In this document: positions 5,896-42,327 of the stretch, piece by piece
Layout of the letters: each line of letters opens with the position of its first letter
How positions within the stretch are numbered: the stretch's first letter is position 1
Virus record (IMG/VR): IMGVR_UViG_3300036833_000338
Span: 1-56,783 of that record
Length of the DNA stretch: 56,783 nucleotides
Source: a virus
Taxonomy: Duplodnaviria; Caudoviricetes
Reading direction: 5' to 3' (one strand)
Program-made: the position numbers and the translations under genes
The notes under the pieces: generated by a model
Seen by the model: only the letters and a program-made list of their open reading frames with translations
What the model was told of the DNA's origin: nothing
The model's database searches: none

Positions 5896-7389
5896 TCAAC
5901 TAATCACCACCGGGCCGACCTGCAGGTTATCCACGGCGCTCGGGGTCCATGGTGCACCGGTATTCGGGTCGGTGACATCGACGCGCCAGGTCCAAAACAT
6001 GGATGTCGATAGCGTCTCTGTCGGGGTTTGCACCGTGGTAGTCCCAGAAGTAAGATTCAGGCTTCCCGACCGCGGATTGAGATTGTCCGACTTGGCCATG
6101 ATGCCTCGCGTGACCACTGCGACGATCGATGGCGGCTCTACGGCAAGACCGCTAATATTATATGTATCGCTGGCACCGGCAACGCCATCGTTGACAAAAA
6201 CGGCGTTGTTATACTGCAGAGGACCAGCAATGGTGGCATTGCTGCTGGCAGTGTAGACTATCGACACAACCGGAGCCGGACCGCTGGCAACACCTACCGA
6301 GTTAAGAGGGAACACAGCGTAAGCCGTGGGACTGCTGCAGCCGGTGATACCGAAGGTGGTGGCTCCGCTGTTGATGTTCGATCCGGTCGGGCTGTCGCTG
6401 CAAAACCCAGCCCATAGTTGTGTATTTTTGCTAACTGCCACTGCTGGTGAAAAAGTAAAGCTGTTGTTTCCGGTCACCGGATTATTGATTGGCGCTGTCG
6501 CCGCAGCCAACACTGTAGTAGGTCCAGCCGCCGTGCCGCTGAACAGCGCACACCGCATATTGCCGGTATAACCTAAAGCCATCGACAAGAGCACGTTGTT
6601 TATGGTGCCGTCATACTTCGCGAGAAAGCCTACATATAAGGCGGCCGGCGGAGTCATGCTCATGGATGCAAACGCGGTGTTGAGGATATGGGTCGCTGGC
6701 GATACTCTGCTGTACTGAATGCTGACGTCAGTGGCCGGCCGTCGAGAATAGCACCGGATGTCACCAAGCCACGCCACCGAAACTGGATCGCTACGCCATA
6801 TAAAATCATCGATCAACCAGTTATTGATCTGGGCATTCTGCCCGAGGACTAGTTGATTGGCGTAATTGTTGGTCGTGCCACCGCGTGTATTGAGCCCGGT
6901 CGCCGAGAAACTATTGACTTGGGTGCCTCCCTTGCGCACGCTGAAGCTGCCACCAGTGTTGTTGATCACCACTTCAAACTCGTATAAAAACCATTCGTTA
7001 CGGAAGTTTACCGCGTTAGGATAGGTCGCCAGCACCGTGCCAGTCGGACCACCAGAAGTCAATAAAATGGCGCCGTCGCTGCGAAACACAATGGTGCATT
7101 GCGCAGTGCTTCCGTCACCCAGGGTTAAATAGCCGCCGAGCGTGGCGCCGCTCAGCCCCTGGGTCTGCATGTAAGCAATGGTGATATGGTGAATCGAGTC
7201 GTTAGCGCCGGAATTTTTGGTGAGCCAGAAACCAAGAACTGTTGACGACTGGAATGCCTGACTACCTGCAAACCTCCCAGCCACCAGAGTAGCGCACGGC
7301 GCGCCGCTGTTCATGGTGTCCCAGTAGCCGTTGGGCAAGGTTTGCACAATGTCGTACGTATCGAAGCTATCGGCGAAAAACCATGCCAT
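5896..7389 (-). CDS. Virion fibre or receptor-binding-like beta-rich protein, paralog 2
   Basis: 497 aa; shares [26 protein letters not shown] and TDPNTGAPW blocks with 7636..9165. Confidence 0.6.
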   Translation of the reverse strand: MAWFFADSFDTYDIVQTLPNGYWDTMNSGAPCATLVAGRFAGSQAFQSSTVLGFWLTKNSGANDSIHHITIAYMQTQGLSGATLGGYLTLGDGSTAQCTIVFRSDGAILLTSGGPTGTVLATYPNAVNFRNEWFLYEFEVVINNTGGSFSVRKGGTQVNSFSATGLNTRGGTTNNYANQLVLGQNAQINNWLIDDFIWRSDPVSVAWLGDIRCYSRRPATDVSIQYSRVSPATHILNTAFASMSMTPPAALYVGFLAKYDGTINNVLLSMALGYTGNMRCALFSGTAAGPTTVLAAATAPINNPVTGNNSFTFSPAVAVSKNTQLWAGFCSDSPTGSNINSGATTFGITGCSSPTAYAVFPLNSVGVASGPAPVVSIVYTASSNATIAGPLQYNNAVFVNDGVAGASDTYNISGLAVEPPSIVAVVTRGIMAKSDNLNPRSGSLNLTSGTTTVQTPTETLSTSMFWTWRVDVTDPNTGAPWTPSAVDNLQVGPVVIS

Positions 7390-7635: not shown

Positions 7636-9165
7636 CTAGCTCAGCACCACCGGGCCGATTTGCAGATTGTTGACTCCGGCCGGAGCCCACGCCGCCCCGG
7701 TTGCCGGATCTGTTGTATCGGTGCGCCACGCCCAGCCATAGACTGTGGTCAGCGCGGTGGTTGGCGTGGCAACGGTCGTGCCGGCGGATTTGAGCTGCAT
7801 GGCACCGGTGCGCGATCCGGCATCGGTCTTGCCGACAAACCCACGAGTCGTCACCGCAATGATACTAGCTGGTGTGCCGGTCATCGCCCCGAGGGTGTAA
7901 AAGTCGGCGTCGCCGGTATTGCCGTCGGTGAGATAGCTGAGCCCGCTGTTCTCGACTGCTTGGTTGACGCAATCGGCGTTGGTCGCCGGGTTGAAAGTCG
8001 CAATTACGCTGGCCTGCTGCGCGCTAGCGGAAGTCCCGGTCGGATTGGAGGTCGGCCACGAGGCATAGGCCTGAGTGGCGGACAGTCCGCCGGCAACCGC
8101 CGTGCTGCCGGCGAATATCATCGAGGCATCCTGGTTATAGCCGAACCAGTATTGAGTGCCTTTGACCAATGTCGGGGGCGATGCGAAAGTGACGGTCTGG
8201 CTGGTCAGAGGCAAAGGATTGAGAATCTCGCTCGATGTTGCCAGCAAAGCTCCGGGAGCTCCGGCAGCGTCGCTGTAGATCGCGCACTTGACATGCCCAG
8301 TGCCGCCTCCGGTGGTGACGTTGAAGCTGACTGTGGCGCTGCCGAGAGTGCCGTTGAAGCCAGCATTGAACGGGAAGTAACTAGGTGCGCCAGCGGCTTT
8401 GGCCGTCAATGCGGTGGTGCCGCTGACGGCGTTCTGAGCCGCAGTCGATCTGGTAAACAACGCTTGGACATCACTGGCGGGGGAGCGAACATAGCAACGT
8501 ATGTCACCAAGCCACGGCGGGGCCGTCACATCGCTGCGCCACAGGAAATCGTCGAACTGGCAGCTGGAGACTGTCTGCGCCTGGAACATTAACAAGCGAT
8601 TGGCGTAGCTGTTGGCCGTGCCGCCACGCGTGGCGAGCCCGGTGATGGGTCCGAAGGTGTTGGTGCTGCTGCCGTTCAGACGGGCAGTAAAGCTGCCTGC
8701 GGTCGGATGGATGACCACCTCGAATTCAAATGCGTACCATGTATTGGCCACTGCGATCGGATTGCTCCCGCCGTTGGTGCCTGGTGTCCCCCAGGTCGCC
8801 AGGACCGTTCCCGTGGTGGCGCCGACGGGCATTCCCGAGGTTAGCAGGATCGTCCCGTCGCTGCGAAACACGATGCTGCACTGCGCGGTGGCGCCGTCCT
8901 GCAATGTCAGGACGTTCGCGTTGCGCACGCCGGTGGTGACCAATGCTGCGGTCTGGCGGTAGGCACAGATGATGTGGTGCACCGGGTCGTTGGACCCGCT
9001 CGCCTTGGCCAAATACAGCGTATTGGAGCCGGCGAGGCTGAGCGCCTGGCCAGCAAAACGGCCAGGCACCAAGGTGGCCGTGAAGCCGGTATCCCAGTAA
9101 CCGGAATAAGCGTCGGCGCCCGTCGCGTACAGATCGAAACCATCACCAAATATGTAAGCCATCAT
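7636..9165 (-). CDS. Virion fibre or receptor-binding-like beta-rich protein, paralog 1
   Basis: 509 aa, G/T/A-rich, paralogous to 5896..7389, within the structural operon. Confidence 0.6.
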
Positions 9166-18823: not shown

Positions 18824-19927
18824 TTAGATCCCCAACATACTGGAAATAGCCATCGGCATTCGAATCACCGCGCCCCAAGTCCCACCAGTTTGTTTTTGAC
18901 GATAAGAACTGGTCGCTCTGATTATTGGGTGCGCCCTCATCTTTTCATTGAACGAACAGTATCCAGTGTCCTGGCCTTCGACGCTCTCGGCGATCAGCTG
19001 CATGAAATTGCCGCCGGTGTGACCTTGCGGGTTCGACGCGCTCAGCACGGCGTATTGCACTGCGGTGACGATCCGCAGGTTGGCGAATTCGTCCTCCAGC
19101 ATCTTGCGCGCGACCAAGCCATAGGTGTTGACAAAGCCGAACGCCACGGCAGTGGCCGGGTCGAGCGCCAGACACATCCGAGTCTCGCGATCGACGAGAC
19201 CGGCGGTCTGCTTGACGAGCTGCGTGAAGAGCGCCAGCACGTCATTGTAGACCTCGTTGGCCGAAGCATTGGGCGCGCCGGGGGCGGTGAACCAGGTCTG
19301 GCCACCTAGCGCCTTGGTGCTCGGGGCCAATGCCGCGCTGAGCGACGGGTCATTGACGAGGCCATAATTCTGCAATCCGCTGAGCCCGTAGAAGTAGGTC
19401 AGGTTGGTGAATTTGTTCATCACCAATGCGGCGGCCTGATCCAGCTCGCTGACCCAGTTGATGCGGGCGAGCCCGGCGCGCTCCAGTTCCAGATCGCCGT
19501 ATTCCTTCGAGGTCTGGAACAGATAGCTTTGCCGTTGCGGCCAGTTGGTGTTGGCGCCCGCGTGCCCGCCCTCGTTGTAGTCGCCGTACGTGGTCACCTC
19601 GCCGACATGCTCGACGATCGGGAACATCGCGGTCTGGTCGAGCCACGTCCCCTTGCGCACCTCTCCGAGGATCTCCGCGGCCTTGTTGGGCGCGAACAAC
19701 ACCTTGAACACGTCGGGATCGATCAACGTGGTCATCATGAATGGCACTGCCGAATTGATCCCGGTGGTCAAGGTCGGCATCGCGTCCAGTGCCAGGTTGT
19801 AGTTGTGCTTGAATTCGGGGGGCGTGTAAGCCCTTGGCGGGTCCATGCCGTCGGCAAAGCTGACACCGAGCGCCTTGAACCGCGCCTGGTCGGCCTGCCA
19901 AGCCGCGCGGCCTTCCTGTAGGTTCAT
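18824..19927 (-). CDS. Major capsid protein (DUF2184-like)
   Basis: NWPQRQSYLFQT...YGDLELERAG...YGLVNDPSL...QKQTGGTWGAVIRMP. Confidence 0.9.
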   Translation of the reverse strand: MNLQEGRAAWQADQARFKALGVSFADGMDPPRAYTPPEFKHNYNLALDAMPTLTTGINSAVPFMMTTLIDPDVFKVLFAPNKAAEILGEVRKGTWLDQTAMFPIVEHVGEVTTYGDYNEGGHAGANTNWPQRQSYLFQTSKEYGDLELERAGLARINWVSELDQAAALVMNKFTNLTYFYGLSGLQNYGLVNDPSLSAALAPSTKALGGQTWFTAPGAPNASANEVYNDVLALFTQLVKQTAGLVDRETRMCLALDPATAVAFGFVNTYGLVARKMLEDEFANLRIVTAVQYAVLSASNPQGHTGGNFMQLIAESVEGQDTGYCSFNEKMRAHPIIRATSSYRQKQTGGTWGAVIRMPMAISSMLGI

Positions 19928-21880: not shown

Positions 21881-22633
21881 ATGCCCGGAAATCCCGAATT
21901 ACCGATCATCACGCAAGCTGAAGCAAAAGCGTGCGGACTCAAGCGCTTTTTCATTGGATTGCCCTGCAGGAATGGGCATGTCGCAGAACACTATAGCAGT
22001 CATGGCGGCTGCGTTGCTTGTGTTGCCCTACGTAATATTGCCAATAAAGAGAGTAAATTATGTTGGCAACGTGAACATCCAAAGGAAATGGCTGCAAGTC
22101 GCCTTTTGTGGCTAATAAACAATCGAGAGAAAGACGCCGCGAGTAGAGCTCTCTATGAAAGAAATAATCGTCCTACAAGAAAAATTACTCGGACCAAAAC
22201 CCCTGAGAAATTTTCCGTATATGATGCCCGTTACCGCTCCACCCATCCAGAACGAGTGAAGGCAAGTAGCACTCGTTATCGAGCAGCCCATCCTGAAACA
22301 GATCGCGCTCACAAGTTCGCACGGCGGGCCGCTGAAGCTAATCCGTCATGGGCTGATCAAAAGGCAATCGCAGCCATGTTTGCCAGTCGTCCGCTTGGGT
22401 ACCACGTTGATCATATTATTCCGCTCGGCAGCGCAAAGCGCCCCGCCAAAACGGCAGAAGGATATCCGATTAGAGGCTTAAATGTGCCGTGGAATTTGAC
22501 GCATTCACGCGCAACAATAAATCTCGGCAAACAGCATCGAATGACCATGGAAGAGCAATTCTTGTGCGAATTGCCATTTACATTACTTCCAGAAGAGCCT
22601 CTTCCAGCCGCGCCCATTCCTTATCTGCAATAG
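21881..22633 (+). CDS. Free-standing HNH endonuclease, antisense to the head operon
   Basis: PSWADQKAI...YHVDHIIPL...GLNVPWNL...NLGK; N-terminal AKACGLKRFFIGLPCRNGH. Confidence 0.88.
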   Translation: MPGNPELPIITQAEAKACGLKRFFIGLPCRNGHVAEHYSSHGGCVACVALRNIANKESKLCWQREHPKEMAASRLLWLINNREKDAASRALYERNNRPTRKITRTKTPEKFSVYDARYRSTHPERVKASSTRYRAAHPETDRAHKFARRAAEANPSWADQKAIAAMFASRPLGYHVDHIIPLGSAKRPAKTAEGYPIRGLNVPWNLTHSRATINLGKQHRMTMEEQFLCELPFTLLPEEPLPAAPIPYLQ

Positions 22634-23555
22634 ATGAGTCCGCAACCATTACGTCAGGCCCTGCGCGACCTTCCCGCACGAGACTCAAGTGATTACAGCG
22701 AATATTTCTCATGACGCCATCAAATTTATGACCCTCGTATACTCCAGGAGTCATATCTGCATCATAGGAATATCCGGCAGATATTTGCTTCTTGTCTCCG
22801 TCTTCAACCGCTTGCGACGCGTATTCCGGCCATATCGAGATATCATTCTTGATATAGGGATGTTCGTATCGAGCCTTGGTTCCCGCGGCACCAACTGTGA
22901 TCTCGGCCGGATGATCTTGTGCTGATGCGGGTTTATGCTCCCAAAGTAGCGGCTGACCATTGAAGCTATTGACAGTTTCCGGCTTAGCAAGTTCTTTAGG
23001 GTGCCTAAGTAGCATATAGGTCTTATCTGGATCTAACCCTAGTTCTTCTGCTTGCGGTATTTCGTCGCCGCGATATGGATTCACAATACCTTTCGTCAGA
23101 TTACAATCACTAACATGCAAACGACCGTCCTTGTCATATGTCCGTTTGCCGCCAGCTTGGTCGAGCGCCAGCGCCATGTCGTTGGCGGCGCGGAGCTCGC
23201 GGGTCAGCGCCGGCTTCAGCGGGTTGGCGGCGTCCTCGCGATCGGTGCCCTCAGGGGCCTCCGCAGGGGGCGCTGGCGGGGCGTGCTCCGCTTCCTGGCC
23301 CTCTTCACCGGCCCAGGCGAGAAGGCCCCTCAGGAACGTCCGCAGGCTGTCGAGAAACGTGCCGGTGGTCTGGTCGCCGTGCCCCTCGCCGATCGACTCG
23401 ACGAATTCTTTCCCGACGCTCTGCGGGATGCCCAGGGTCGACTTCCCGGACGCGGCGGCGTGCATGGCGCGGCGTTGGGATTCCGAAACGGGGGGGTCGG
23501 TGGCGAGGTCATCGCCGACGCCTGAGATCGGTCCTCCCACATCGGGCATGGCCAA
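22578..23555 (-). CDS. Prohead protease-like protein (DUF2213)
   Basis: RTYDKDGRLHV...VNPYRGDEIP...ISAGYSYDADMTPG...DGVMRNIRCNHLSLVREGRAGPDV. Confidence 0.88.
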   Translation of the reverse strand: MAMPDVGGPISGVGDDLATDPPVSESQRRAMHAAASGKSTLGIPQSVGKEFVESIGEGHGDQTTGTFLDSLRTFLRGLLAWAGEEGQEAEHAPPAPPAEAPEGTDREDAANPLKPALTRELRAANDMALALDQAGGKRTYDKDGRLHVSDCNLTKGIVNPYRGDEIPQAEELGLDPDKTYMLLRHPKELAKPETVNSFNGQPLLWEHKPASAQDHPAEITVGAAGTKARYEHPYIKNDISIWPEYASQAVEDGDKKQISAGYSYDADMTPGVYEGHKFDGVMRNIRCNHLSLVREGRAGPDVMVADSSIADKEWARLEEALLEVM

Positions 23556-24635: not shown

Positions 24636-25568
24636 TTACTCGAATGCAGTACCTGTTGTATACCCTTGAGCGCGCAATGCAGCAAGATATTCTGGATTAC
24701 GGCGTAACCGCCCTTCGGCCGGAGTTTCACCAGCGAGCACGACTTCCGACCAACACCGGCAGTTTGGCCCGCCGCCTGGGTGATAACGCATTTCCCGCTG
24801 GCCTGGCTCACTAGCAATCGGCGGCTCTGACCAGCGATGGAAGGTTCCTTCCAGCTGCTTATGGCGAGGTCGCACGTCGCGGTCGAGTGACGATCGCCAA
24901 ATATATCCTTCCGATCCGAGATTTATCGACCGCTGCTCCAGGATTGCCCCCGCGGTGCGGCTGACCTCGGTGCGTCCGATTAAATTGGCCCGCGACTTGG
25001 TGACTTCGCCGGTCGCGAAGATCTCTCGACTAACTTCTTCCCAGCGTTTGCCGCCAGTGATCGCCTCCACTCCGAGCTGATGGACCCGCTCGGAAGCTTC
25101 CCTGGGGAGCGATTGAATCAGCCGCACCTGTTCTTCGAGCAGCCGGTCGAGCATCGGCTTGATGTCCACATCCGCGATCTCGCGGCGCAGTCCCCGGTAT
25201 ATTTCTCGTCCTAATTTATGCCAGCCGACGGCATCGCGGCGGGCGATCTCGCTCAAGATTCTCTCGGCCGTGACCGCAGCCCATGGCTCGAGGATGTCGG
25301 CATACTGGCCGAGCATGTCCTCGAGGGTGCGCAGCAGCTCGGGGGTCCATATCCCGTCGCTCGGGGCCATGCCGCGGACGAGGTCGCCGATGTGCCGGGC
25401 GATCTTGCGCAGGTTTCGGGCGTACTCACTCTCGGCCCGCCGGGCGCGCATCGCGTGGGCGCGGGCGCTCTCGGCCCCGCGGTGCTGGCCGCGGGCGATG
25501 GGGAAACGCCGCGACGGAAAGAACGGGCTCCAGTCGCGGTAGTAGCCTTCCGGGTCTTGCGACTGCAT
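24636..25568 (-). CDS. MuF / SPP1 gp7-like head morphogenesis protein
   Basis: RANLIGRTEVSR...YIWRSSLDRDVRPRH...HPGGGPNCRC. Confidence 0.9.
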   Translation of the reverse strand: MQSQDPEGYYRDWSPFFPSRRFPIARGQHRGAESARAHAMRARRAESEYARNLRKIARHIGDLVRGMAPSDGIWTPELLRTLEDMLGQYADILEPWAAVTAERILSEIARRDAVGWHKLGREIYRGLRREIADVDIKPMLDRLLEEQVRLIQSLPREASERVHQLGVEAITGGKRWEEVSREIFATGEVTKSRANLIGRTEVSRTAGAILEQRSINLGSEGYIWRSSLDRDVRPRHKQLEGTFHRWSEPPIASEPGQREMRYHPGGGPNCRCWSEVVLAGETPAEGRLRRNPEYLAALRAQGYTTGTAFE

Positions 25569-25604: not shown

Positions 25605-25778
25605 TTATGGAGCAGGCTTCGGGCTCTCCGGCAGCAACCCCTCGCGCTGCATCCGCGCCTTCACCTTCTCGGCGAAGGCGCGAGCCTGTTCAGGCGTCAT
25701 CACGCCCTCGGACGGGTCATCCGGGTCATCGATCCACGGGGCCCACTGCCCTGGCGATGGCTTCTCCTGGGATTCCAT
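25605..25778 (-). CDS. Hypothetical small protein
   Basis: MESQEKPSP... with GAGG RBS, overlapping the portal 3' end. Confidence 0.45.
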   Translation of the reverse strand: MESQEKPSPGQWAPWIDDPDDPSEGVMTPEQARAFAEKVKARMQREGLLPESPKPAP

Positions 25779-28700
25779 TTTTCCTCGCCTCTGCTTGTAG
25801 GGCAGTGGAATAATCGACGTTGGTGCCTTCGGTATCCCGGCCACCCAGTTTCGCATACAGCTCCTTCTCAGGATACCACCAGATCGCCTGCAGATCGGCA
25901 TTGCTGAGATGCGTGCCCTCGGCGGACAGCATTTGCCTGGCATGATCGACGACATCCCGCATCCAAATCCGGTCGCCGCCCGATTTTGGCGTCTCATTGA
26001 TGCCGTCCATGGCGTGGATCATCCGCTCGGCCGACAGTGTCAATTCGGACTTGAGGCGGGTCTTTGCGCGGTATTCAGCGGCATGAGCGGCGTAATCGCG
26101 TTCATGCAAGGCAACGATCGCGTCGGCCTGCGACTTTAGCTCCTCCAGGGTTGGCGGCACCGGCCCGCCGCCTGCGGCGAGGGCTCGCTCAAATCTGCCT
26201 TGGGTCTTGGCAAAGGACGCGGGATCGAGCTGTCCCTTCAGGGAGCCGGCGAGCCGTCCCCAGGCCCGCATGAACCACAGGTCCATCGTGACCGGGTTAT
26301 AATTGCCATTGAGGTTCTGGAAGAATCCACCGCCGATTTTTGGTCCGAAGATCGCCGAGCCGTAAACCGGCGTGTCGACGTTCTCGCCCTGGATCGGATG
26401 ACCATCCGCAGTCAGCTCGCCCGCCGTCCGCTCGGTATTCAGGAATTGCCGCGTTCCTTCCGGCCCCAGTGTATCCAGCAAATTGTTGTACTTTCCGAAA
26501 TTGGAGTTCATCGCGATCTTTTCTTGGGCTTCTATGTTCGTCGGAAACCGGCCGGTCTGCTTGAAGGTTCGGTACGCCTGATCGGCCAATCGCACATTCG
26601 ACGGTACCTTCTCGCCTTGGCTGGTGATCGCCAGTGCGGCGGTATACGCAGTGCGCGCGTGCGGATCGGTGGTCAATTCCGGATGCATCAAGGCAGCGAC
26701 ATCCATCGCCTCCTTGACCTTGCTGGTGTACCAATTGCCCGCGTGACCGGAGCGCGCCGCAGCGTCTTTGATCTCACTGGCAATGACGCGCGACAACAGA
26801 TGATCGGTTCGCGGAGACGGCCCTTGGATGCGACCGCCAGGGACGCCGAGGTTTCTGAGTGCGGCTGAGCCGCGCGCCATCAATTGGTCCGCGATGTCGA
26901 CCACCGTGCGCGAGCGTGGTCTTGCAGCAGGCGTATCACCGTAGAGGATGTCCCGCACCGAGAGCGCGCGTTCGCGCGGGTCGGCGCCGATCGGCGGCTC
27001 TACGCCGGTTTGCGTCCAGGTTGCTTCGCGCCAATGATCGTCAGCGTCTCGCCAGACCTCTCGGAGGTTTCGTCCACCCACCGCTCCGGAATCTTCCGTT
27101 TCGCGGATGACGGCTTCGTAGGCGCGCTGGGCGTCGGCGCGCTGCTCTTCGTCGGTTCCGGTGTCGAGCTTTGTGCCAATGAACTCTCCGTTGCCATGGG
27201 TGACCTTGATCGGCACGTCAGCCGCGACCCGCTCGATCGCCGCGTCGGTTTCGGGATCGCTCGAGTAAATATGAACCTTGGCGCCGCCGGGTGTCGGTTC
27301 CAATGTGTGAAAGGCCAGGCCGCCTTGCAATAGCTGATCGTGGATCTGCGACAGATCGCCCGGCAGCTCAAAGCTCACCATGCTCTCGGGCCCCTTGGGG
27401 TCCGGGTTGAACACCAGCACCGCCTTCTGGTTGGAGACGGCGCCCTTCATCGCGGCTGCCGCGCGGACCATCGCCGGATCGCCGCGCAGCGCGACCATCA
27501 ACGAATTCTCGGCACCGTCCGACCAGGCGCCGATGACGTCGGCTCGATGCGTCTCGCGCAGCCCGAGACCATCGTCGATGATGCGGCTGACCTGGCCCAA
27601 AGCCTTTTGGCGGACGCCACCCAGCTCGGCCTGCGCTTGGGGGAAGGTCAGGTCACGAATATTCGGGGAAGCAAAGGTTTCGGCCGTTCGAACTCTCGGC
27701 GCGGCGCGTTTAACAGGTTCCGCCGCGGCAGGCTCAGGCTTGGCAGGAGTCTCCTTCTTCTCGGGCTCGGAGGGCTCCTCGGCCTCCGGCTCTTCCTTCT
27801 CCGCAGGCTCTTCCTTCTTGGCGCCGGCCTCGCCTTCACCCTTCCGCGCGAATTGCCCGTGCTTGCGGGTGACGTTCTCTTCCTTAAACTCGGCATCCTC
27901 GGCGAACCAATCGGCCAGCCACTTCGCGTCACCGGTCAGTGGGGCTTTTTTTTTTGCTTCCGCTTCCGGGTCGTAGTTGGCGATCGCCTCGGCCAGATCT
28001 TCGAGGAACGCCTGCAGCCGCGCGATATCGTCCGGTGTCAGGTCATCGTTATCCGGCGCCGCGTCACCACCGCCTGCCGCTGCCCTGGCCATTCCGATGC
28101 CGAGTTTGGCGCCATGTTCGATGATGACGTGCTGGACGATTTCCTGCGCGAGCATCACGGCCGCATGCGCCACCGTCCCGGTCGGATCACCGGTCAGCAG
28201 CATCGACCCGCCCGACATCGCCATGCGCAGGCCGAAGGAGCGCAGACCTTTCATCTGCTCCGGGGTCGGCCGGTTGCCGGTCGCCATCGCCTTGAGCCCA
28301 CCGGCCGCATGCATCGCGTGCGTCTTCTCTTCGTGCCAGATGTGTTTCGGCAGATCCTTGGCCATGCCGGCGATCCTGCTCGCCCAGCTCTTGCGGGCCT
28401 CGCCGCCCGGTTTCAGCGCTTCGTGGATGGCCTGAGCCTCGGGCCGCCCGACCTCGCCGATGCGATGGACCACCGCCGCGGCGGCCCGCGCCCCAACGCC
28501 GGGCGTCGCGCTCGGTATATGCTGGTGAACGCCGCCCCCGCCACCGCCCGAGGTAAACCGGCCGTGCGCCTCGCGGCGGTGCTTCGACTCTTCCCATTCG
28601 GCCTGGTCGAAAGGCGCCCGGCTACGATCGCGCTCAGCCTGCAGCCCGTAGATGTACTGAATGATGTTGGACGGTGCGCCACGGGCGATCTCGAGCAAGT

Positions 28701-31137
28701 CGGGATCGAGCGGAACCGGCGCCTCCTGATCGAATGCGATGTCGCCCGCTCGATGCGCCGCCAGGCTCTGCCGGCCGGAGGCCGGGTCGCGGGTCGCGCC
28801 AAACGGCGACGTCACCGATGTGATGGCACCCTGGTGCGGGCCACCGCCCGGCGGCCGCGGCGGCCCGCCCAATGCGGGTTGCCCGGCACCAGCCATCGGC
28901 GGTGCCGGCGGCTCCGCGGGCAGCTCCTCCGGGTCGAGGTCGAGCGCGACATACGGGCTCTCCGGATCGGTCGCCAGGATGCGGCGCACCTCTTGATTCG
29001 TCACCGCGCCCATCTCTTCATACTTCGAATGAATGTCGGCCTTGGTCGCCTGCACCGAGGCTTTGCCGGCCTCGTCCAATTGCCACAGGCTCTTGAAATC
29101 AAACGTAATATCCGGGTCGACCCGGCCCAGGCGCGAGAGCTGGATAAAATCGATGACGCGGGTCAGCGGCTCGCGGAATAACAACTCTTGATAGGCGGCT
29201 ATCCAATCGTAAAAACTTCTGATCTCACCTTCACTACTTGCGTTTAGTCCTGACGGTGTGAGACCCGTATATTTTATTAGCGGTAGTCCACTAATTGAGC
29301 AGTTATGGACGAGTATACCGTTGGCGTACAACTCAGGGAGGTACCCATCGGCAACCTGAAGATTATAGACCGGCTCGCTGGCGTACCTTCCAAGCCGCGG
29401 TGTTGCAACGTTGGCTGCAATAGAGCGCGCGCTCGGGCCAGACGGTCGAATATTCAGCGCCGCAGCTCGCGCAAATCTTGGTAACAGCTGGTCCAAACGT
29501 AGTGAAACCGAGTCGGCCCTCGTTGACATGTTGGCGAATATGGTCGCCGTGCGGGATGCACTCGAAATTGCCGAGCTGATTATGCTCTGTATCTTCGTCG
29601 ATATGATGGACATCGTAGCCGTCAGGGATCGGCCCGTGATGCACAATCCAGATCTGTCGGTGCAGGAGTCCGCCTGCTTTGACGTTACGGTAATAACCCG
29701 ACTTAGTCTTGCCCCACCAATGGCCGCGCCAGAGGACCGGTGGCCCGTACTTGTTGGCCACGTTGGGGCCTCTAATTCGAGGCTGGCCTTTGCGCCGCTG
29801 CACAGCAGGAGATCCCCAGGCCGCACATTCTTCGCACTGACAAACGCGTCGATCGTAGGTAAATAAATCGGGTGGCATGGTGTGACCCAGACTGCTGAGT
29901 GCTCGCTCTTGATAAGGAGCAGTTCAGCAGAATAGCCGGTGCAACCGACCCAGGTCAACGGGGCGAGGCCTTTGCGGGTCATCACCTGATCGGTCAATTC
30001 GAGGCGATCAATCCGAACCTGTCCACGTTGCGTCTCGACCAGCGTGTTGCCAGAAACGCAAATATGTTCCTGCGACTGCGCCTGCAAGGCATCGAGACCG
30101 GCCAGCGGTGTCGAGATATTCTGAAACTCTTCAGTCTCCTTATTGAGGATCAGCAGCGCCCGGTTGTCGCGAAAGAAGTTGTACAGATCGGCCCGGTTCT
30201 GGACGATCTGCTGCCCGCCATTGTTGAGCATGGCGGTCAGATCGGTCAGCATCACGGCGGTCGAGAACGAACGGATCAGATCGGCGACCGAGTCACGCGT
30301 CTGCGTCCACTTGTCGATATAGGTCTTGGCCATCTGCGACAATGGCAGACCGCCAAACATGTACGCCGGCTTGAGCAGGTCCGGCACCTCGCGGCCGACC
30401 AGTGTCAGTAGCCGCGTGGCGTGGATCATCTTGCCCATGACAAACCACGACTGCGGCTTGTACCAGTCGGGGCGCAGTGGATCGGACGCGTTGTAGTCGA
30501 TTGGGTACGTCCATACCGCTTCCACTGTACGCAGCGCCTTCAAGCCGCCTTTGCGGATTTTAGCCTGCGAGATCAGATCCCGGCCATGGCCGATCGGAGT
30601 CTTCAGCTCGTCGGGGGTGTCGGTCGTGCCGAGGTCGATGTAGAGATGCGCCCGGCCAAAGAAGCCATCCTGCTCGGCCAGCCGGCGAAACGCGTCCTGC
30701 ACGCCCAGCCGTTTGATCTCGTCCTCGAGCGCGTTGATTTCGAGGCTCTTGTCCTCGTCGCTGGAGCTTTTGAGCTCGATCCATTCGCGCGTCATCTCGG
30801 TGGCGATGACTTCGCTGAGCCGCCGGTACTCGCCGCGCTGCGCCAACTCGGCCAGCAGCGGATAGCCGAGAAAACTCATGCCGTCGGCGTAATACGCCGC
30901 GAGCAATTGGTCGGCGGCCCAATTGGTCGAATTGCCGACAGCGCTGTCCATCGCCATCGTCGGCGCACCCTCAGGCACCACCCCTGGCATCGGCGCTGAG
31001 GGGGCGAACACCGGCTGCTGCGGCTTGCCGCGCGGGATCTGGCCGCGTTCTCCAGCTTTTTTCAGCGCTGCGGCGAAATCGCCTACCGGGGCGTCAGCAT
31101 CGGTCGGCGGCTGCGCCAGATTGACGACGTCGGCCAT
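25726..31137 (-). CDS. Portal protein (DUF1073-like) with intein and a long C-terminal extension of roughly 1000 aa
   Basis: FLGYPLLAELAQRGEYR...YNASDPLRPDWYKP...LLKPAYMFGG...TPSGLNASSEGEIRSFYDWI; follows terL. Confidence 0.9.
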   Translation of the reverse strand: MADVVNLAQPPTDADAPVGDFAAALKKAGERGQIPRGKPQQPVFAPSAPMPGVVPEGAPTMAMDSAVGNSTNWAADQLLAAYYADGMSFLGYPLLAELAQRGEYRRLSEVIATEMTREWIELKSSSDEDKSLEINALEDEIKRLGVQDAFRRLAEQDGFFGRAHLYIDLGTTDTPDELKTPIGHGRDLISQAKIRKGGLKALRTVEAVWTYPIDYNASDPLRPDWYKPQSWFVMGKMIHATRLLTLVGREVPDLLKPAYMFGGLPLSQMAKTYIDKWTQTRDSVADLIRSFSTAVMLTDLTAMLNNGGQQIVQNRADLYNFFRDNRALLILNKETEEFQNISTPLAGLDALQAQSQEHICVSGNTLVETQRGQVRIDRLELTDQVMTRKGLAPLTWVGCTGYSAELLLIKSEHSAVWVTPCHPIYLPTIDAFVSAKNVRPGDLLLCSGAKASLELEAPTWPTSTGHRSSGAAIGGARLSRVITVTSKQADSCTDRSGLCITGRSLTATMSIISTKIQSIISSAISSASRTATIFANMSTRADSVSLRLDQLLPRFARAAALNIRPSGPSARSIAANVATPRLGRYASEPVYNLQVADGYLPELYANGILVHNCSISGLPLIKYTGLTPSGLNASSEGEIRSFYDWIAAYQELLFREPLTRVIDFIQLSRLGRVDPDITFDFKSLWQLDEAGKASVQATKADIHSKYEEMGAVTNQEVRRILATDPESPYVALDLDPEELPAEPPAPPMAGAGQPALGGPPRPPGGGPHQGAITSVTSPFGATRDPASGRQSLAAHRAGDIAFDQEAPVPLDPDLLEIARGAPSNIIQYIYGLQAERDRSRAPFDQAEWEESKHRREAHGRFTSGGGGGGVHQHIPSATPGVGARAAAAVVHRIGEVGRPEAQAIHEALKPGGEARKSWASRIAGMAKDLPKHIWHEEKTHAMHAAGGLKAMATGNRPTPEQMKGLRSFGLRMAMSGGSMLLTGDPTGTVAHAAVMLAQEIVQHVIIEHGAKLGIGMARAAAGGGDAAPDNDDLTPDDIARLQAFLEDLAEAIANYDPEAEAKKKAPLTGDAKWLADWFAEDAEFKEENVTRKHGQFARKGEGEAGAKKEEPAEKEEPEAEEPSEPEKKETPAKPEPAAAEPVKRAAPRVRTAETFASPNIRDLTFPQAQAELGGVRQKALGQVSRIIDDGLGLRETHRADVIGAWSDGAENSLMVALRGDPAMVRAAAAMKGAVSNQKAVLVFNPDPKGPESMVSFELPGDLSQIHDQLLQGGLAFHTLEPTPGGAKVHIYSSDPETDAAIERVAADVPIKVTHGNGEFIGTKLDTGTDEEQRADAQRAYEAVIRETEDSGAVGGRNLREVWRDADDHWREATWTQTGVEPPIGADPRERALSVRDILYGDTPAARPRSRTVVDIADQLMARGSAALRNLGVPGGRIQGPSPRTDHLLSRVIASEIKDAAARSGHAGNWYTSKVKEAMDVAALMHPELTTDPHARTAYTAALAITSQGEKVPSNVRLADQAYRTFKQTGRFPTNIEAQEKIAMNSNFGKYNNLLDTLGPEGTRQFLNTERTAGELTADGHPIQGENVDTPVYGSAIFGPKIGGGFFQNLNGNYNPVTMDLWFMRAWGRLAGSLKGQLDPASFAKTQGRFERALAAGGGPVPPTLEELKSQADAIVALHERDYAAHAAEYRAKTRLKSELTLSAERMIHAMDGINETPKSGGDRIWMRDVVDHARQMLSAEGTHLSNADLQAIWWYPEKELYAKLGGRDTEGTNVDYSTALQAEARKNGIPGEAIARAVGPVDR
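29302..30060 (-). mobile_element. Intein in portal (253 aa)
   Basis: EHI/CVSGNTLVETQRG (block A), VTPCHP (block B), VYNLQV (block F), YANGILVHN/C (block G). Confidence 0.92.
29363..29761 (-). CDS. HNH endonuclease with Zn finger, nested out of frame in the portal intein
   Basis: LLHRQIWIVHHGPIPDGYDVHHIDEDTEHNQLGNFECIPHGDH; CASCG...YCSQRC; GAGG-N7-GTG start (ORF open to 29878). Confidence 0.88.
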   Translation of the reverse strand: MANKYGPPVLWRGHWWGKTKSGYYRNVKAGGLLHRQIWIVHHGPIPDGYDVHHIDEDTEHNQLGNFECIPHGDHIRQHVNEGRLGFTTFGPAVTKICASCGAEYSTVWPERALYCSQRCNTAAWKVRQRAGL

Positions 31138-31141
31138 GAGA

Positions 31142-33346
31142 TCAGCGCCGCAGCGTGTGGACCATCGGCAGCCCGGGGCGCGGCTGCAGCATCGATTTTG
31201 TTACAATAACTGGCAGGGGACCGGGTTCGACCAGCAGGTCCGTCAATGCCCACACCAGCGCGTCGACTCTGTCCGGTGACCCGTCGCGGGCCCGGTCATA
31301 GTCGATCGTAAACGAGCATTGCTGATCTTCGAGCTGGGGAAAATTTCCCACGTGGTGGATTCTCCCCTGCTCGTAGAGGGCGCTAACCGGCTCGGCGCGG
31401 ATCGCCTTGCCGCGCGAGGCATGCACTGGCGTATAGGCGATGTCCGGGTCGACCATCCTGATCGTGTTCTCGACCATTTCGCCTCCGTTGTTGATCTCGG
31501 CGACGATGCGGTCAGCCTTGCGCTGCGGGTGCTTGTATTGGGCTATTGCTGCCCGCGCCCACTCGGTCGGCTGGTAGTGCCCTGAAACGTCTGCGAGCAC
31601 ATAGCCATGCCCCGCCCAGTCGCAGGCGGCGACGACGATGCCGGTTTCATCCGCCTCCTCACCGCTGGTTGCGGCCGGATCGACGGCACAGACAATCCGC
31701 TTGAAGGCAGGCAGCGGTTGCCCGTAAGGCCAGCGGTCGCGATCGATCCCCTCGCGTGTCCACAGCGCCCCTGGCACGTCCTCGAGGAGCTCGCCGCCGA
31801 TCTCCTGGCGACCGAGGCGGGTGCCCTCGTAGCGGGCGACGATGCGGTCGAAGAAGGTCGGCGCGAGGTTGGCGCGGTTCTCGTAGCTGGAGCCGCGGGT
31901 GATGACGGTCATCGGATCGGCGAGCAGCTCGCGCAGAAGCTTCGTCGGACGCGGCGTCGCGGTCACCATGACTCGTGGATCGGGTCCCAGCCGCAACCCA
32001 AACATCAGCATGTCCCACGCCTCGGGGTATTTCCAGACCGACAACTCGTCGCAGTTGTGGACTAAAACTCCATTGGCGAAATATTCAGGGGAGCGCTCGA
32101 CAGTGAGATTAAAGACGCGAGCCTCGCCTTCTGGCTCCCAAGTTGACACAACGCTGACTACAGAAATTTCCTTGCCTCGACCTGAACGATCTCCCGCAAT
32201 ATTCACAGGCTCGGTCTGTCGTGCGGGCTTCCTCGGCTCGCTTTTGTTGACATCGCAAACATACCGGATCCCGGGCGTCTTTGCGCTGCTTTCGAATGAC
32301 TTCGACCCCACAGTCGCCGCAGCATAAGCGAATTTCTGGTTTGAGAGACCAATCGACAGGAGCAATTGGCTTTTCAGCGACGTGAAGCTTTCGATGATCA
32401 CTCTTCGATAAAAGCTCCAAGTCATCTGGGTTGGTCGTAGCCAGATCTTCGACCCGATGATGCACATCAAATCCCGGAGGAATTTCTCCGTGGGCCGCTC
32501 TCCATACGGCCCGATGTAAGCGGTCTCTGTCGACTCGCCCGAGTGACCTCGTGCCGCGATATTCGAAATACCCCGGTTGTCCGCGAGCCCGGTATCGGTG
32601 CCACCGCCGTCCACCCCACTCGACGCACTCGTTACACATGCCGCCCCTCGCGACAGGTCGGAAAGCCTCATCCAACCATGCGATGATAGTACGGGGTGCT
32701 CGGCCGTTCCAGTCAGATGCCTGCCATCAGCAAAGCGAACGGTCCCCACTTTTTCTGCTCGCGAAGCGACTCGGATCACGGCGTGTAGCCCGCTTCTTGT
32801 TACCACGAGATCGCCTGCTTTGATCGCTTCGATCGGGATCTCGCCGTGATCCGTGAGGATCGTCGTGCCGGCGACAAAACACCACGATCCATCGTGCTGC
32901 GGCCCGCGCAGGCGATCGGGCTCCTCAGCGCTATAGAGCGTGGCGACGGCGCCGTTGGGCCAGGTCAGGCGGCGCTTCGAGGGCTCATAGAGCGGCCGCT
33001 CGGAATTCGGCGAGACGGCCAGGATGCCGGATTGCCCCTCGACGATGACGTCACGGATATCGGCTGCGGTCGGGGCGACCAGCGCGAGCCGACGGCGCCC
33101 TCGCTTGACTTGCTCGCGCGTCCATTCGGCCCCTGAGCGCGTCTTTCCGTACCCGCGACCGGCAAGCAATAGCCACACCCGCCAATCGCCCGGCGGTGCC
33201 AGCTGCGAGGGTCGCGCCTGCCGATGCCAATCAAAATGGACAGCATCAGTGTTTCGTGTCTCCTGTAGTATTTCCGCTGCGTCTATCGCTTCCAGCAATG
33301 CCTGCAGCGAGCTTCGCGTCGGCGATCCACTGTGCAAGCTCAGCAT
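31142..33346 (-). CDS. terL: Terminase large subunit with intein
   Basis: Walker A AGRGYGKT, Walker B W/CDE split by the intein, VTATP, nuclease VDPA...DETGI...PDRVDALVWA. Confidence 0.95.
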   Translation of the reverse strand: MLSLHSGSPTRSSLQALLEAIDAAEILQETRNTDAVHFDWHRQARPSQLAPPGDWRVWLLLAGRGYGKTRSGAEWTREQVKRGRRRLALVAPTAADIRDVIVEGQSGILAVSPNSERPLYEPSKRRLTWPNGAVATLYSAEEPDRLRGPQHDGSWCFVAGTTILTDHGEIPIEAIKAGDLVVTRSGLHAVIRVASRAEKVGTVRFADGRHLTGTAEHPVLSSHGWMRLSDLSRGAACVTSASSGVDGGGTDTGLADNRGISNIAARGHSGESTETAYIGPYGERPTEKFLRDLMCIIGSKIWLRPTQMTWSFYRRVIIESFTSLKSQLLLSIGLSNQKFAYAAATVGSKSFESSAKTPGIRYVCDVNKSEPRKPARQTEPVNIAGDRSGRGKEISVVSVVSTWEPEGEARVFNLTVERSPEYFANGVLVHNCDELSVWKYPEAWDMLMFGLRLGPDPRVMVTATPRPTKLLRELLADPMTVITRGSSYENRANLAPTFFDRIVARYEGTRLGRQEIGGELLEDVPGALWTREGIDRDRWPYGQPLPAFKRIVCAVDPAATSGEEADETGIVVAACDWAGHGYVLADVSGHYQPTEWARAAIAQYKHPQRKADRIVAEINNGGEMVENTIRMVDPDIAYTPVHASRGKAIRAEPVSALYEQGRIHHVGNFPQLEDQQCSFTIDYDRARDGSPDRVDALVWALTDLLVEPGPLPVIVTKSMLQPRPGLPMVHTLRR
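32054..32881 (-). mobile_element. Intein in TerL (276 aa), inserted at Walker B
   Basis: GSW/CFVAGTTILTDHG, GTAEHP, VFNLTV, YFANGVLVHN/CDE. Confidence 0.93.
32109..32639 (-). CDS. HNH endonuclease with Zn fingers, nested out of frame in the TerL intein
   Basis: RLHRAVWRAAHGEIPPGFDVHHRVEDLATTNPDDLELLSKSDH; CGDCG, CLRC, CEYCG...FCSQRC; GAGGGG RBS before MCNEC (ORF open to 32675). Confidence 0.88.
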   Translation of the reverse strand: MCNECVEWGGRRWHRYRARGQPGYFEYRGTRSLGRVDRDRLHRAVWRAAHGEIPPGFDVHHRVEDLATTNPDDLELLSKSDHRKLHVAEKPIAPVDWSLKPEIRLCCGDCGVEVIRKQRKDARDPVCLRCQQKRAEEARTTDRACEYCGRSFRSRQGNFCSQRCVNLGARRRGSRL

Positions 33347-40226: not shown

Positions 40227-41996
40227 TCATGCCGCACCCATGATGCGCTCGAGGATCCAGCGTATGACCGGCACCGCCATCGAATTGCCGAGCGCCCGGT
40301 AGCGCGGCCCGTCCGCCGCCGGCTTGCCGCGATACGAGATCGCGGTCCAGCCCGGCGGAAATCCCTGGAGTTTTTCGCATTCGACCGGCGTCAGCCGCCG
40401 CACCGCCATCTGCTGTACATAGCTGCGGCTCGATCCGCCGCTCGCGGACCGGATGTTCGCGATCTCGTCCAACTCAGGCATGGAACCGCCTTCACGGCCC
40501 CGCAGATTGAAGGCAACCGCCGTCGCCCGGTTCGCCGTCAGGGTCGGCCGATCGCCTTTGATGGCTTGGTTGGAATAATTCGATTGGAAGGCGATGGCCT
40601 GGGTGTGGCCATCGGTGTCGAGCACGTTGGCCTGGTCGCCGTAGATGCACACATCGGATTGGCGGGCGTCGAAGGCGATGGCGTGCTGATCGCGGCCTGT
40701 CAGGGTGAATTGTGGATCGCCAACTTCTCCTATTCCAAGGCCGTTCTGCTTCTTGTTGCGATCCAGGGTTCCTTGAATGGGGATAATCGCCACCAGCGGC
40801 GTGCCGCGCCCGGTGCCGTCTTCGCTGGCGTCGAAGCCCTCGGCGCGAAGGGCGTGGGTGACGATCATCTCCGACCCGTTCCCGGCGTTGCCGTTGCCGC
40901 CGACCGCCGCCTGCAGGGTCGGCGCGAGGTCGCCCGAACGCCCGCAGGCGATGAAGGTCTCAGTCTCGAAATCCTGTCGCCCGTGCGGCCCGCCGTGGGC
41001 ATTGACCGCCTCGATCGGCCCGGACTGGCGGTTGCCGCCGTAGGCGACGGCGTTATTCGCGCGAGCCCGTAGCGAGGGCTGACATCCCTCGACGATGTTG
41101 AGGCCCGAGCGCTCGGCCGCATTTCCCGCCGCACCTTCGCCGCTGCGGTCCAACGCATCGCTGCCGATGCCGTAGCCGTGAGCGCCGACGCTGAGGGTCG
41201 GGGCAACCTGCGCGATCAGTCCGCCGTCGCACTCGAAGTCGGTGCCGAGCCCGCCGCCTGCCGTAGCGCGGCTGCTAAGGCTGGGGGCAACATCGGCAAT
41301 GCCGTGATGCTTGCCACTCTGCAGCGTGAACATCGGGTCGCCAAGCTCGCCGATGCCTATTCCGGCGCGCGGATCGTCGGTCGAGACGCCTGTTCGAGCA
41401 CCGACTTCAAGGATCGGGGCAACTCCTTCCCCCGCTTTTCTGCCCGGCGCAGGATTCCCGTGCAGGCTTTCGGGCTCAAAAAGTACCGCTGCGGCAGGTC
41501 GCCAGTCTCCAAGATGGCCGACAACGAACAGGCGACGCCGTCGCTGGGGTACTCCGAAATATTGAGCGTCAAGCGTCCGGTAGGCCCACCCGTACCCGCA
41601 TTGCTCCACTGCCCCGAGAAAGGTGCCAAAGTCCCGTCCCTCGTCGGAAGACAGGAGGCCGGGCACGTTCTCGAAAAGAAACCAACGGGGGCGCAGGCGC
41701 TCAACCAGACGAAGGGCGACGAGGGCCAGGTTGCCGCGCGGGTCGTCCAGCCCGAGGCGCTTCCCGGCGACCGAAAAGGACTGGCAGGGCGATCCGAAGA
41801 CGACGACGTCCACAGGCTCAACTGCGTCGGCATCGATCCGCTCCACGTCGCCGAGGTTGGGGATGCCGGGGAAACGGGCGCGGTGCACAGCACTGGCGAA
41901 CGGGTCGATCTCCGCGCACCACCGCCAGTCGATTGCCGCACATGCCGCCTCCGGCGCCCCGATCCCTGAAAAAAGAGTACCCCCGGAAAGTCTCAT
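40227..41996 (-). CDS. C5 cytosine DNA methyltransferase (alpha chain) with long variable region
   Basis: LFSGIG (I), GSPCQSFS (IV), ENVPG (VI), QRRRRLF (VIII), RRLTPVECEKLQGFP, RYRALGNS (X). Confidence 0.93.
   Translation of the reverse strand: MRLSGGTLFSGIGAPEAACAAIDWRWCAEIDPFASAVHRARFPGIPNLGDVERIDADAVEPVDVVVFGSPCQSFSVAGKRLGLDDPRGNLALVALRLVERLRPRWFLFENVPGLLSSDEGRDFGTFLGAVEQCGYGWAYRTLDAQYFGVPQRRRRLFVVGHLGDWRPAAAVLFEPESLHGNPAPGRKAGEGVAPILEVGARTGVSTDDPRAGIGIGELGDPMFTLQSGKHHGIADVAPSLSSRATAGGGLGTDFECDGGLIAQVAPTLSVGAHGYGIGSDALDRSGEGAAGNAAERSGLNIVEGCQPSLRARANNAVAYGGNRQSGPIEAVNAHGGPHGRQDFETETFIACGRSGDLAPTLQAAVGGNGNAGNGSEMIVTHALRAEGFDASEDGTGRGTPLVAIIPIQGTLDRNKKQNGLGIGEVGDPQFTLTGRDQHAIAFDARQSDVCIYGDQANVLDTDGHTQAIAFQSNYSNQAIKGDRPTLTANRATAVAFNLRGREGGSMPELDEIANIRSASGGSSRSYVQQMAVRRLTPVECEKLQGFPPGWTAISYRGKPAADGPRYRALGNSMAVPVIRWILERIMGAA
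41357..41833 (-). CDS. Alternative-frame ORF inside the MTase, resembling an M.EcoHK31I-type beta polypeptide
   Basis: CSLSAILETGDLPQRYFLSPKACTGILRRAEKRGKELP; ORF open to 41941. Confidence 0.7.
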   Translation of the reverse strand: MPTQLSLWTSSSSDRPASPFRSPGSASGWTTRAATWPSSPFVWLSACAPVGFFSRTCPASCLPTRDGTLAPFSGQWSNAGTGGPTGRLTLNISEYPSDGVACSLSAILETGDLPQRYFLSPKACTGILRRAEKRGKELPRSLKSVLEQASRPTIRAPE

Positions 41997-42102
41997 GATC
42001 GTTTGATTCCGATCCAGGCTTCGTGTACATCGGACTCGAGCGGCGGCGGCGGCGCGGTCAGCCGGAAGGGCGGCGTTCGGCTCGACCAGTGTGCGGCGGC
42101 GC

Positions 42103-42327
42103 TCATGCCTTCCTTGCACGCTTGCGAAAATCATAGATCGCGCTATCCAGCGCGCGCCACGCGTCGCCAACCGCATCCTGGTCGTGAGCGCCGGCTTGCT
42201 CAGCCTGCATGACATCCTGAAAGTGCTCAGCAGCTTTAGCGAGGTATTCCCCGAATTCGATCGCAAAATCCTTATCGGTTCGGCCGAGATGCTCGGTCGT
42301 TGATTCAGGTAGCTTCTGCACGCTCAC
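42103..42327 (-). CDS. Hypothetical protein
   Basis: RTDKDFAIEFGEYLA...AIYDFRKRA; coupled to the upstream gene. Confidence 0.6.
   Translation of the reverse strand: MSVQKLPESTTEHLGRTDKDFAIEFGEYLAKAAEHFQDVMQAEQAGAHDQDAVGDAWRALDSAIYDFRKRARKA

Follow-up and report, generated by a model that had tools for sequence, protein, structure and literature searches.

The question raised by this locus is what a phage could do with a portal protein that runs on, in one reading frame, for about 1,070 further residues. We analyzed a stretch of 56,783 nucleotides (the window), which is the IMG/VR record IMGVR_UViG_3300036833_000338, linear and with a completeness estimate of 82%. Its open reading frame (ORF) at 25726–31137 on the minus strand is a portal with a C-terminal polyvalent-protein cargo. 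The cargo ends in two domains, called M and C below: the modeled fold of M resembles the S-adenosylmethionine (SAM) lyases of phages, and that of C the HhH-GPD superfamily (helix-hairpin-helix, Gly/Pro loop, Asp), which includes DNA glycosylases. On balance, we favor the reading that this is anti-defense cargo, held inside the capsid by the portal, cut loose, and injected to act on SAM and on bases.

Organization of the portal–cargo ORF

An initial annotation, covering 25726–28900 (the last ~1,058 residues of the ORF), had described a portal fused to a long cargo polyprotein with a glycosylase-like end. The complete ORF is organized as follows; "tag" stands for a short recurrent motif described below.

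25726–31137, minus strand: whole ORF (portal, intein, and cargo), 1,803 residues plus stop, with no internal stop
30061–31137, minus strand: N-terminal part of the portal, residues 1–359 (best PF06381 stretch, 93–359)
29302–30060, minus strand: intein of 253 residues, 360–612 (Cys start, TPCH block, VHN followed by Cys613)
28933–29301, minus strand: C-terminal part of the portal, residues 613–735 (TIGR01555 stretch, 618–718)
28600–28932, minus strand: Pro/Gly/Ala-rich linker, residues 736–846 (16% Ala, 11% Gly, 17% Pro)
28540–28599, minus strand: tag 1, EWEESKHRREAHGRFTSGGG, residues 847–866, matching the recurrent tag pattern
27892–28539, minus strand: Ala/Gly/His-rich module of unknown function, residues 867–1082
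27832–27891, minus strand: tag 2, EFKEENVTRKHGQFARKGEG, residues 1083–1102, a diverged copy placed like the tags of relatives
27715–27831, minus strand: acidic Glu/Lys/Pro/Ala spacer, residues 1103–1141, identified by composition
27001–27714, minus strand: domain M, residues 1142–1379, with a predicted double ferredoxin-like, SAM-lyase-like fold (G1203, W1205, E1210, S1212, Q1237)
25729–27000, minus strand: domain C, residues 1380–1803, with a predicted HhH-GPD-type fold and an inserted helical hairpin (model residues 258–333)
26266–26358, minus strand: putative HhH/Gly-Pro loop/Asp signature within C, S1594–R1624 (K1600, D1619, W1621, R1624), placed by the secondary structure of the model

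The portal was identified by PF06381 (Phage_portal_3, HI1409 family; E = 4.2e-73; 246.5 bits, cut-off 33.8), with a matching stretch on each side of the intein, and by phrog_146 (E = 9.7e-94). In a tblastn search, 596 phage records matched residues 4–735, again in two pieces flanking the intein and ending at about residue 735; the linker starts right behind this portal core, at residue 736, where the initial annotation had proposed a Pro/Gly linker. The sequence strings that it had quoted are all present: besides the two tag sequences, at residues 847–866 and 1083–1102, these are GNWY (1467–1470), GPKIGGGFFQNLNG (1598–1611), VTMDLWFMR (1616–1624), and DLQAIWW (1748–1754). Its hydrophobic helical segment turned out to be moderately hydrophobic only and not membrane-like: the Kyte-Doolittle mean over 19 residues peaks at 1.35, at residues 996–998, below the transmembrane level, and a membrane-inserting segment at residues 960–1020 was thus rejected. 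Its anatomy was also incomplete, as it had missed the portal intein and had not recognized the middle domain M as SAM-lyase-like.

Continuity and recurrence of the fusion

The initial annotation had named a missed stop or frameshift between the genes as a possible objection. The frame contains no internal stop, and a Logan contig from the public run X1 is identical to the window over 25700–30349, with 0 differences, 0 gaps, and no indels listed. X1 may be the source sample, and thus this match tests the assembly and does not represent an independent sample. The fusion also recurs, as the portal and M-C lie in a single protein in 20 of the 242 collected relatives; uninterrupted frame, contig identity, and recurrence together bear out the fusion of a portal to a long cargo. 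Among the 119 other proteins listed, 20 carry PF06381 and two carry PF05136, the lambda-type portal.

Portal-M-C fusions were found in 3 of 80 IMG/VR loci (L046, L048, and L074), and three more loci encode a separate M+C gene downstream of the portal gene, directly adjoining it in L082 and L083 and about 1.8 kb away in L044. The fusion counts are lower bounds, because portals in the 80 loci were detected by BLAST with this phage's portal only.

One low-depth X1 contig joins position 28872 to position 30080, skipping 28873–30079 (1,207 bases, not a multiple of three). This joint probably derives from another organism; the signal is weak, and we did not use it as evidence. A second run, X2, contained only 9% of the sampled words, in short pieces that mostly diverge among the 10 of 17 listed, and was not used for claims on habitat or strain. 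The public runs that contain the window sequence are soil metagenomes only.

Domain C has an HhH-GPD-like predicted fold

The model of C was built from a 24-sequence alignment, with a predicted local distance difference test (pLDDT) score of 91.3. In a structure search independent of Foldseek, covering 48,161 chains, ranks 1 to 23 were nearly all HhH-GPD enzymes or their kin, including MutY, AlkA, and MagIII. Tm1821 Ogg (3n0u_A) scored 10.6, with a root-mean-square deviation of 3.9 and 196/209 residues aligned. NTHL1 and ROS1 scored 8.9 each, QNG1/DUF2419 8.8, EndoIII and OGG1 8.0 each, and PaMx11 gp46, a DNA hypermodification enzyme, 6.4.

A pattern resembling the signature of the superfamily can be followed along the model, which places a helix at 214–218, a G-P-K hairpin, a helix at 222–230, the loop N-G-N-Y-N-P-V-T-M, D240, and a helix at 241–251. 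K1600 falls in the hairpin between the first two helices, and D1619 starts the next one. The Lys-to-Asp spacing is 19 in C versus 18 in Escherichia coli Nth, and the Arg lies 5 residues behind the Asp, in agreement with Nth and MutY. Across 212/212 relatives, the Lys and the Asp are invariant, as are six further residues of the motif; the proposed equivalence of this Lys and Asp to those of HhH-GPD enzymes was drawn from spacing and secondary structure. We consider it very likely, on the strength of the model, that C has an HhH-GPD-like fold; more tentatively, and with slightly more doubt than conviction, we propose that it performs N-glycosidic cleavage.

The domain is common. C has 2,361 representative relatives at E ≤ 0.001, and of 557 IMG/VR stretches that fit the pattern, 460 encode a relative. 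In 41 of the 80 loci, C lies within an ORF of 1,500–3,900 residues. Matches in BFVD were named as LPD, ART-PolyVal, or RelA/SpoT proteins. In the podovirus record MW202640.1, C is part of a 2,792-residue protein encoded between the M23 peptidase and tail fiber genes, and in Limnohabitans phage DC33 of a 3,125-residue protein whose neighbors are all annotated as hypothetical.

Direct matches to C itself were weak, namely, DUF7178 (PF23802) and phrog_3842, with E = 2.4e-4 and below the cut-off. DUF7178 (E about 1e-28) stands in place of M-C in two close relatives, P0122 and P0156, whose linkers are 84% and 95% identical, and it follows M in P0166 and P0203. P0122 has the linker and tags of the present ORF, but in place of M-C it carries DUF7178 and, at residues ~440–640, a different module, which by eye looks like an acetyltransferase; this exchange suggests that cassettes are swapped behind a constant portal-linker. 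The name DUF7178 was absent from the searched literature.

The modeled domain M resembles SAM lyases

The model of M, built from 20 sequences (pLDDT 93.4), consists of two ferredoxin-like halves and two long helices. When 999 chains were ranked by fold similarity, phage SAM lyases occupied ranks 1, 2, 3, and 5, with 6znb (9.2), 6zm9 (9.1), 8bb1_E (8.4), and 7ock (8.1). Foldseek returned a probability of 1.00 for both 7ock_K and 8bb1_E; no usable match to M was found in the ESM Atlas.

In SAM lyases, a hairpin carries Gly and Tyr on one strand and Glu and Ser on the other; Gly56, Glu69, and Gln104 are reported as the only strictly conserved residues, and Tyr58 is described as packed against the substrate (Guo et al. 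2021, PMC7877911). In M, G1203-A-W1205 ends one strand, E1210-N-S1212 starts the next, and Q1237 lies just before the following strand. These places match those of the conserved SAM-lyase residues topologically, as judged by inspection. The T3 SAMase has G55-C-Y57, E67-E68, and Q94 within 'EQDCVLVY', where M reads 'NQKAVLVF'. Among 43 relatives, Glu is conserved in 43, and Gly, Trp, and Gln in 42 each. M is probably kin to SAM lyases. That it also cleaves SAM is a suggestion we make with some reserve, slightly short of an even chance. Together with the continuous frame and the domain order, we count the two folds, as modeled, among the observations, as well as the residue conservation and the relationship to phage polyvalent proteins and to other portal-M-C fusions.

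Tags precede the modules of the cargo

Both short motifs of the ORF are instances of a tag that recurs ahead of cargo modules. In its loose form, the pattern occurs 67 times in 243 proteins, versus 17.9 expected from shuffles. Most instances share a fuller form: an aromatic residue, an acidic one, an acidic one or Pro, two variable positions, His/Glu/Gln-Pro-Arg, two variable positions, and Gly-x-Phe/Trp-Thr-x-Gly-Gly-Gly, written as [FW][DE][EP]..[HEQ]PR..G.[FW]T.GGG. Tag 2 does not match the regular expression used for the search; it sits like the tag of P0209 (..EFKEEQ HKRDHGKF..) and the equivalent element in P0122 and P0156. The composition of residues 1083–1141, which include tag 2 and the spacer behind it, is 30% Glu, 15% Lys, 13% Pro, and 15% Ala.

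Proteins carry up to four tags, each preceding a module. The tag between portal and M is kept in 13 of the 20 portal fusions, and tags are also found at the N-termini of stand-alone M-C proteins and of neighboring cargo genes downstream of portals. The modules behind them include a Zeta_toxin, a Pyr_redox_2 flavin reductase with an ADP-ribosyltransferase, and a topoisomerase IB; five of the 10 proteins scanned had no Pfam family at all. Two of these portal neighbors are worth locating: at L040:3309–6191 (plus strand), a tag lies ahead of a thioredoxin-reductase-like flavoenzyme and an ADP-ribosyltransferase, and at L048:5773–6972 (plus strand), ahead of a Zeta-toxin-type kinase. As the initial annotation had stated of similar KHPR..G.F motifs, the tag is found in head-associated cargo proteins.

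In a protein already fused to the portal, a label that served as an address only would add nothing, yet the tag is retained there, and it is repeated between modules; a processing site, or a combined docking-and-cleavage signal, therefore seems to fit best, as far as the sequences can indicate. A literature search found no published description of the motif, and no phage paper was among its results.

Kinship with polyvalent proteins

Polyvalent proteins have been described as packaged and injected, and effector domains, PBECR and 2H among them, have been reported in fusions to portal and MuF proteins (Iyer et al. 2017, PMC5512222). The ORF belongs to this kind: behind the portal lie two strongly conserved enzyme-like domains, folded in the models, and one module of unknown function, and relatives of C carry LPD22, LPD23, LPD38, LPD39, InPase, and ART-PolyVal domains. 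The proposal that the extension carries effectors is thus in line with its relatives. M and C co-occur in either order. Neither matches any Pfam LPD model, although either may be among the unnamed LPDs of Iyer et al. (2017); the terms glycosylase, endonuclease III, SAMase, adenosylmethionine, and intein are not mentioned in the main text of that paper (PMC5512222).

Proposed mechanism

The genes around the ORF form a head module, all on the minus strand, in which the portal takes the position expected in a packaging module, after the large terminase (TerL) and before the MuF-like protein, the protease, and the major capsid protein:

31142–33346, minus strand: large terminase, directly upstream of the ORF (phrog_979, E = 1.2e-34)
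24636–25568, minus strand: MuF/head-morphogenesis-like protein of 310 residues, next gene downstream (phrog_324, E = 1.4e-51)
22578–23555, minus strand: prohead (head maturation) protease, the candidate processing enzyme, two genes downstream (phrog_2229, E = 8.8e-77)
18824–19927, minus strand: major head protein, head module

Portals of solved structure point their C-terminus into the capsid. In the steps below, we infer where the cargo lies in the particle, that it is cut and ejected, and what the two enzymes do and to which targets, from polyvalent proteins, from T4 and P1 cargo, and from portal structure. Once the intein has spliced, each procapsid would incorporate twelve portal–cargo chains, whose cargo would lie on the inside, beside the DNA. 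The cargo would thus enter as part of the portal and not, as the initial annotation had suggested, be packaged through it. Cleavage at the two tags or close to them would then free it from the portal body and perhaps also divide it into modules; the likeliest cutter would be the prohead protease encoded two genes downstream. At infection, the pieces would exit with the DNA: M would remove SAM or a SAM-derived signal, needed by type I/III restriction and BREX, and C would flip out and cut a base in DNA or in a nucleotide. Virion-packaged proteins placed in the head are delivered with the DNA and act before phage gene expression (summarized in Iyer et al. 2017, PMC5512222).

The phage also encodes a 679-residue DNA methyltransferase (40227–42266, minus strand; phrog_116, E = 3e-86). 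Its own DNA is probably modified, and this is relevant to the distinctions that a base-cutting enzyme, if injected, could make.

Evidence against the proposed reading and alternative explanations

Several results weigh against this reading. The S-AdoMet_lyase model (PF23780) matched just one of the 20 M members, with 12.5 bits (cut-off 28; E = 0.15), and M is therefore named SAM-lyase-like and not a family member; hhalign of the M alignment against the T3 SAMase gave a probability of 0.15. For C, PF00730 matched nothing in the window at E ≤ 10 (control genomes were positive in 14/14 cases) and none of the 24 aligned C members. Moreover, hhalign gave probabilities of 0.15 for the C alignment against E. 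coli Nth alone and of 0.34 for a 206-row C alignment against an Nth/MutY/AlkA profile, which was thin because the Nth homologue listing held only proteins at least 86% identical. The best E value of the C model in Foldseek against the PDB was 0.18. Thus, C is filed as an HhH-GPD-like fold and not as a PF00730 member: the likeness to HhH-GPD enzymes seen in the initial annotation holds for the modeled fold and, judged by spacing and secondary structure, for a GPK...D...R pattern that falls on a helix-hairpin-helix, a Gly-Pro loop, and an Asp, and it does not extend to a link between sequence profiles. A PDB sequence search with the C profile gave nothing meaningful.

Furthermore, the SAM-dependent DNA methyltransferase of the phage would sit awkwardly beside strong SAM destruction; speculatively, a small and non-renewed virion dose, active only at entry, could reconcile the two. 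Lastly, no cleavage, virion presence, or ejection was seen in these sequence analyses, and the 115-kDa extension, in 12 copies, might simply stay on the portal.

This last point leads to the alternative that survives best, although we consider it improbable: the extension would remain on the portal for good, inside the head, in a structural or packaging role, in which the HhH domain holds or organizes the DNA end, or repairs, modifies, or checks the passing DNA. It is coherent with an extension that is covalently part of the portal and for which this analysis showed no cleavage, with the binding of HhH motifs to the DNA backbone, known from textbooks, and with the separate MuF-like head protein already encoded next door. 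However, a permanent portal part does not explain why C sits in proteins of 1,500–3,900 residues in 41 of the 80 loci, with relatives carrying ART-PolyVal, RelA/SpoT-like, and LPD effector domains, nor why M-C is a separate tagged protein in L082 and L083. The bead-like division of the modules by up to four tags per protein argues in the same direction, and M resembles a small-molecule enzyme, for which there is no obvious use inside a capsid.

A second alternative, somewhat less probable again, takes M and C as a small-molecule pair. C would be a QNG1/DUF2419-like N-glycosidase of nucleotides or nucleosides, M would bind or cleave a SAM-like nucleoside, and the pair would break down a cofactor of the host or a defense signal such as SAM-AMP or related conjugates. 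The co-occurrence of M and C in either order is coherent with such a pair, as is the pairing of M with DUF7178, which bears the K...VTMD motif of C. On the other side, the D-x-W-x-x-R of C, with Arg five residues behind Asp, matches Nth and MutY.

Finally, we rejected as highly improbable an assembly artefact in which a stop or frameshift had been missed between the portal gene and a gene of its own for the cargo. The separate adjacent genes of L082 and L083 and the one weak X1 joint might speak for it; against it, the frame is open across 1,803 codons, the separately built contig matches it without indels, the fusion recurs in relatives, and the weak joint has 21 letters on one side and falls at no gene or intein boundary.

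Portal-tethered, injected anti-defense cargo thus remains the reading we prefer. A more far-reaching version of it appears doubtful to us: M-C would be a widespread and unrecognized two-enzyme cassette for virion-delivered anti-defense, with M a SAM lyase stopping SAM-dependent restriction and BREX at DNA entry, and C a sequence-divergent new HhH-GPD branch cutting a base in DNA of the host, in modified DNA, or in a defense nucleotide. In this version, the [FW][DE]E..HPR..G.F-T.GGG tag would act as a portable signal, not described before, for capsid loading and prohead-protease cleavage, freeing separate enzymes from a portal-borne polyprotein.

Inteins, linker, and other features of the window

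The splicing residues of the portal intein are all present (C360, T419-P-C-H422, H611-N612, and C613). It was matched by TIGR01443 (intein_Cterm) with 18.7 bits against a cut-off of 15.6, and by Hint_2 under the cut-off (E = 8.3e-05, 23.4 bits versus 28.4). Its center is of low complexity and rich in Ser, Ile, and Thr, with no recognizable homing endonuclease, and none of the 242 relatives of cargo-bearing proteins has this intein. A further intein (32054–32881, minus strand, residues 156–431) interrupts the large terminase; it starts with Cys-Phe-Val-Ala, and its last residues, Val-His-Asn, precede a Cys. At its two ends, it shares about 35% identity with the portal intein, and the two adjacent packaging genes therefore carry two related inteins. 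A PDB sequence search gave nothing meaningful for TerL or for the linker region.

The Ala/Gly/His-rich module is present in only 3 of the 242 relatives and had no Pfam, PHROG, or PDB match; residues 790–1085 had no usable match in the ESM Atlas.

Elsewhere, the window encodes a myovirus-type tail sheath (gene at 4262–5809). Beside it lies a paralogous gene pair (5896–7389 and 7636–9165, both minus strand; 497 and 509 residues), and both paralogues match phrog_2448, of unknown function, over their first ~240 residues. A 632-residue protein (47825–49723, plus strand; phrog_2045) joins a ParB-like part to a functionally unassigned domain.

Novelty and significance

Portal–effector fusions and polyvalent proteins are already known. 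What is new here is the fold-based identity of two very common unannotated domains and their pairing, together with the recurrent tag and its combination with an intein-split portal. In a literature search, no paper was found that treats 'SAM lyase' together with 'polyvalent protein', and none on a packaged phage DNA glycosylase.

Polyvalent proteins are abundant in phages, and most of their domains have no assigned function. If C were a base-excision enzyme or N-glycosidase, and its frequent partner M a SAM lyase, thousands of proteins could be annotated. This would also suggest that some phages carry anti-restriction enzymes in the particle rather than making them after entry. Through the tag, the addressing and cutting of cargo become accessible to experiment, and it could be used to look for more effectors delivered by virions. 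As a model, the portal fusion is convenient, because it sets both the dose, 12 copies per virion, and the location of the cargo.

Comparison with known systems

C resembles the HhH-GPD superfamily in its fold, as modeled, and in a putative helix-hairpin-helix, a Gly/Pro loop, and an Asp at the start of a helix. It differs in being about twice the size of the members, with a 76-residue inserted helical hairpin and ~65 extra N-terminal residues, and its hairpin reads G-P-K-I-G where the HhH-GPD enzymes have G-V-G-R-K. Unlike these enzymes, C would also be part of a virion protein. DUF7178 shares the K-[IV]..F[FY].N[IL] ... VTMD motif with C, and its VTMD is followed by T-H, as in Nth; in contrast to C, which stays below its gathering score, it is a 193-position model without an assigned function.

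The phage SAM lyases, such as the T3 gp0.3 SAMase and Svi3-3, have a ferredoxin-like core like the one predicted for M, are its best fold matches, and show the same succession of a G-x-aromatic motif, a hairpin, E-x-S, and a Gln ahead of a strand. However, M has 238 residues, a second ferredoxin-like half, two long helices, a much shorter hairpin, and Trp in place of Tyr. Moreover, the known SAM lyases are small, early-expressed proteins and not virion cargo.

With polyvalent proteins, the ORF shares the assembly of several unrelated enzyme-like domains in one polypeptide, the location in the head-packaging module, and, through the relatives of C, the domains themselves. The Alt and internal proteins of T4, DarA and DarB of P1, the N4 virion RNA polymerase, and the MuF toxins (Jamet et al. 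2017, PMC5576092) are comparable injected cargo. The terms 'conserved motif', 'linker', and 'cleavage' are absent from Jamet et al. 2017 (PMC5576092). The present ORF is unlike all of these in that the carrier is the portal itself, and its release would therefore need cleavage. T4 marks its cargo with a short N-terminal peptide for addressing or processing, and the tag can be likened to it. Nevertheless, the tag is a different motif from the T4 capsid targeting sequences and, unlike them, is repeated between the modules.

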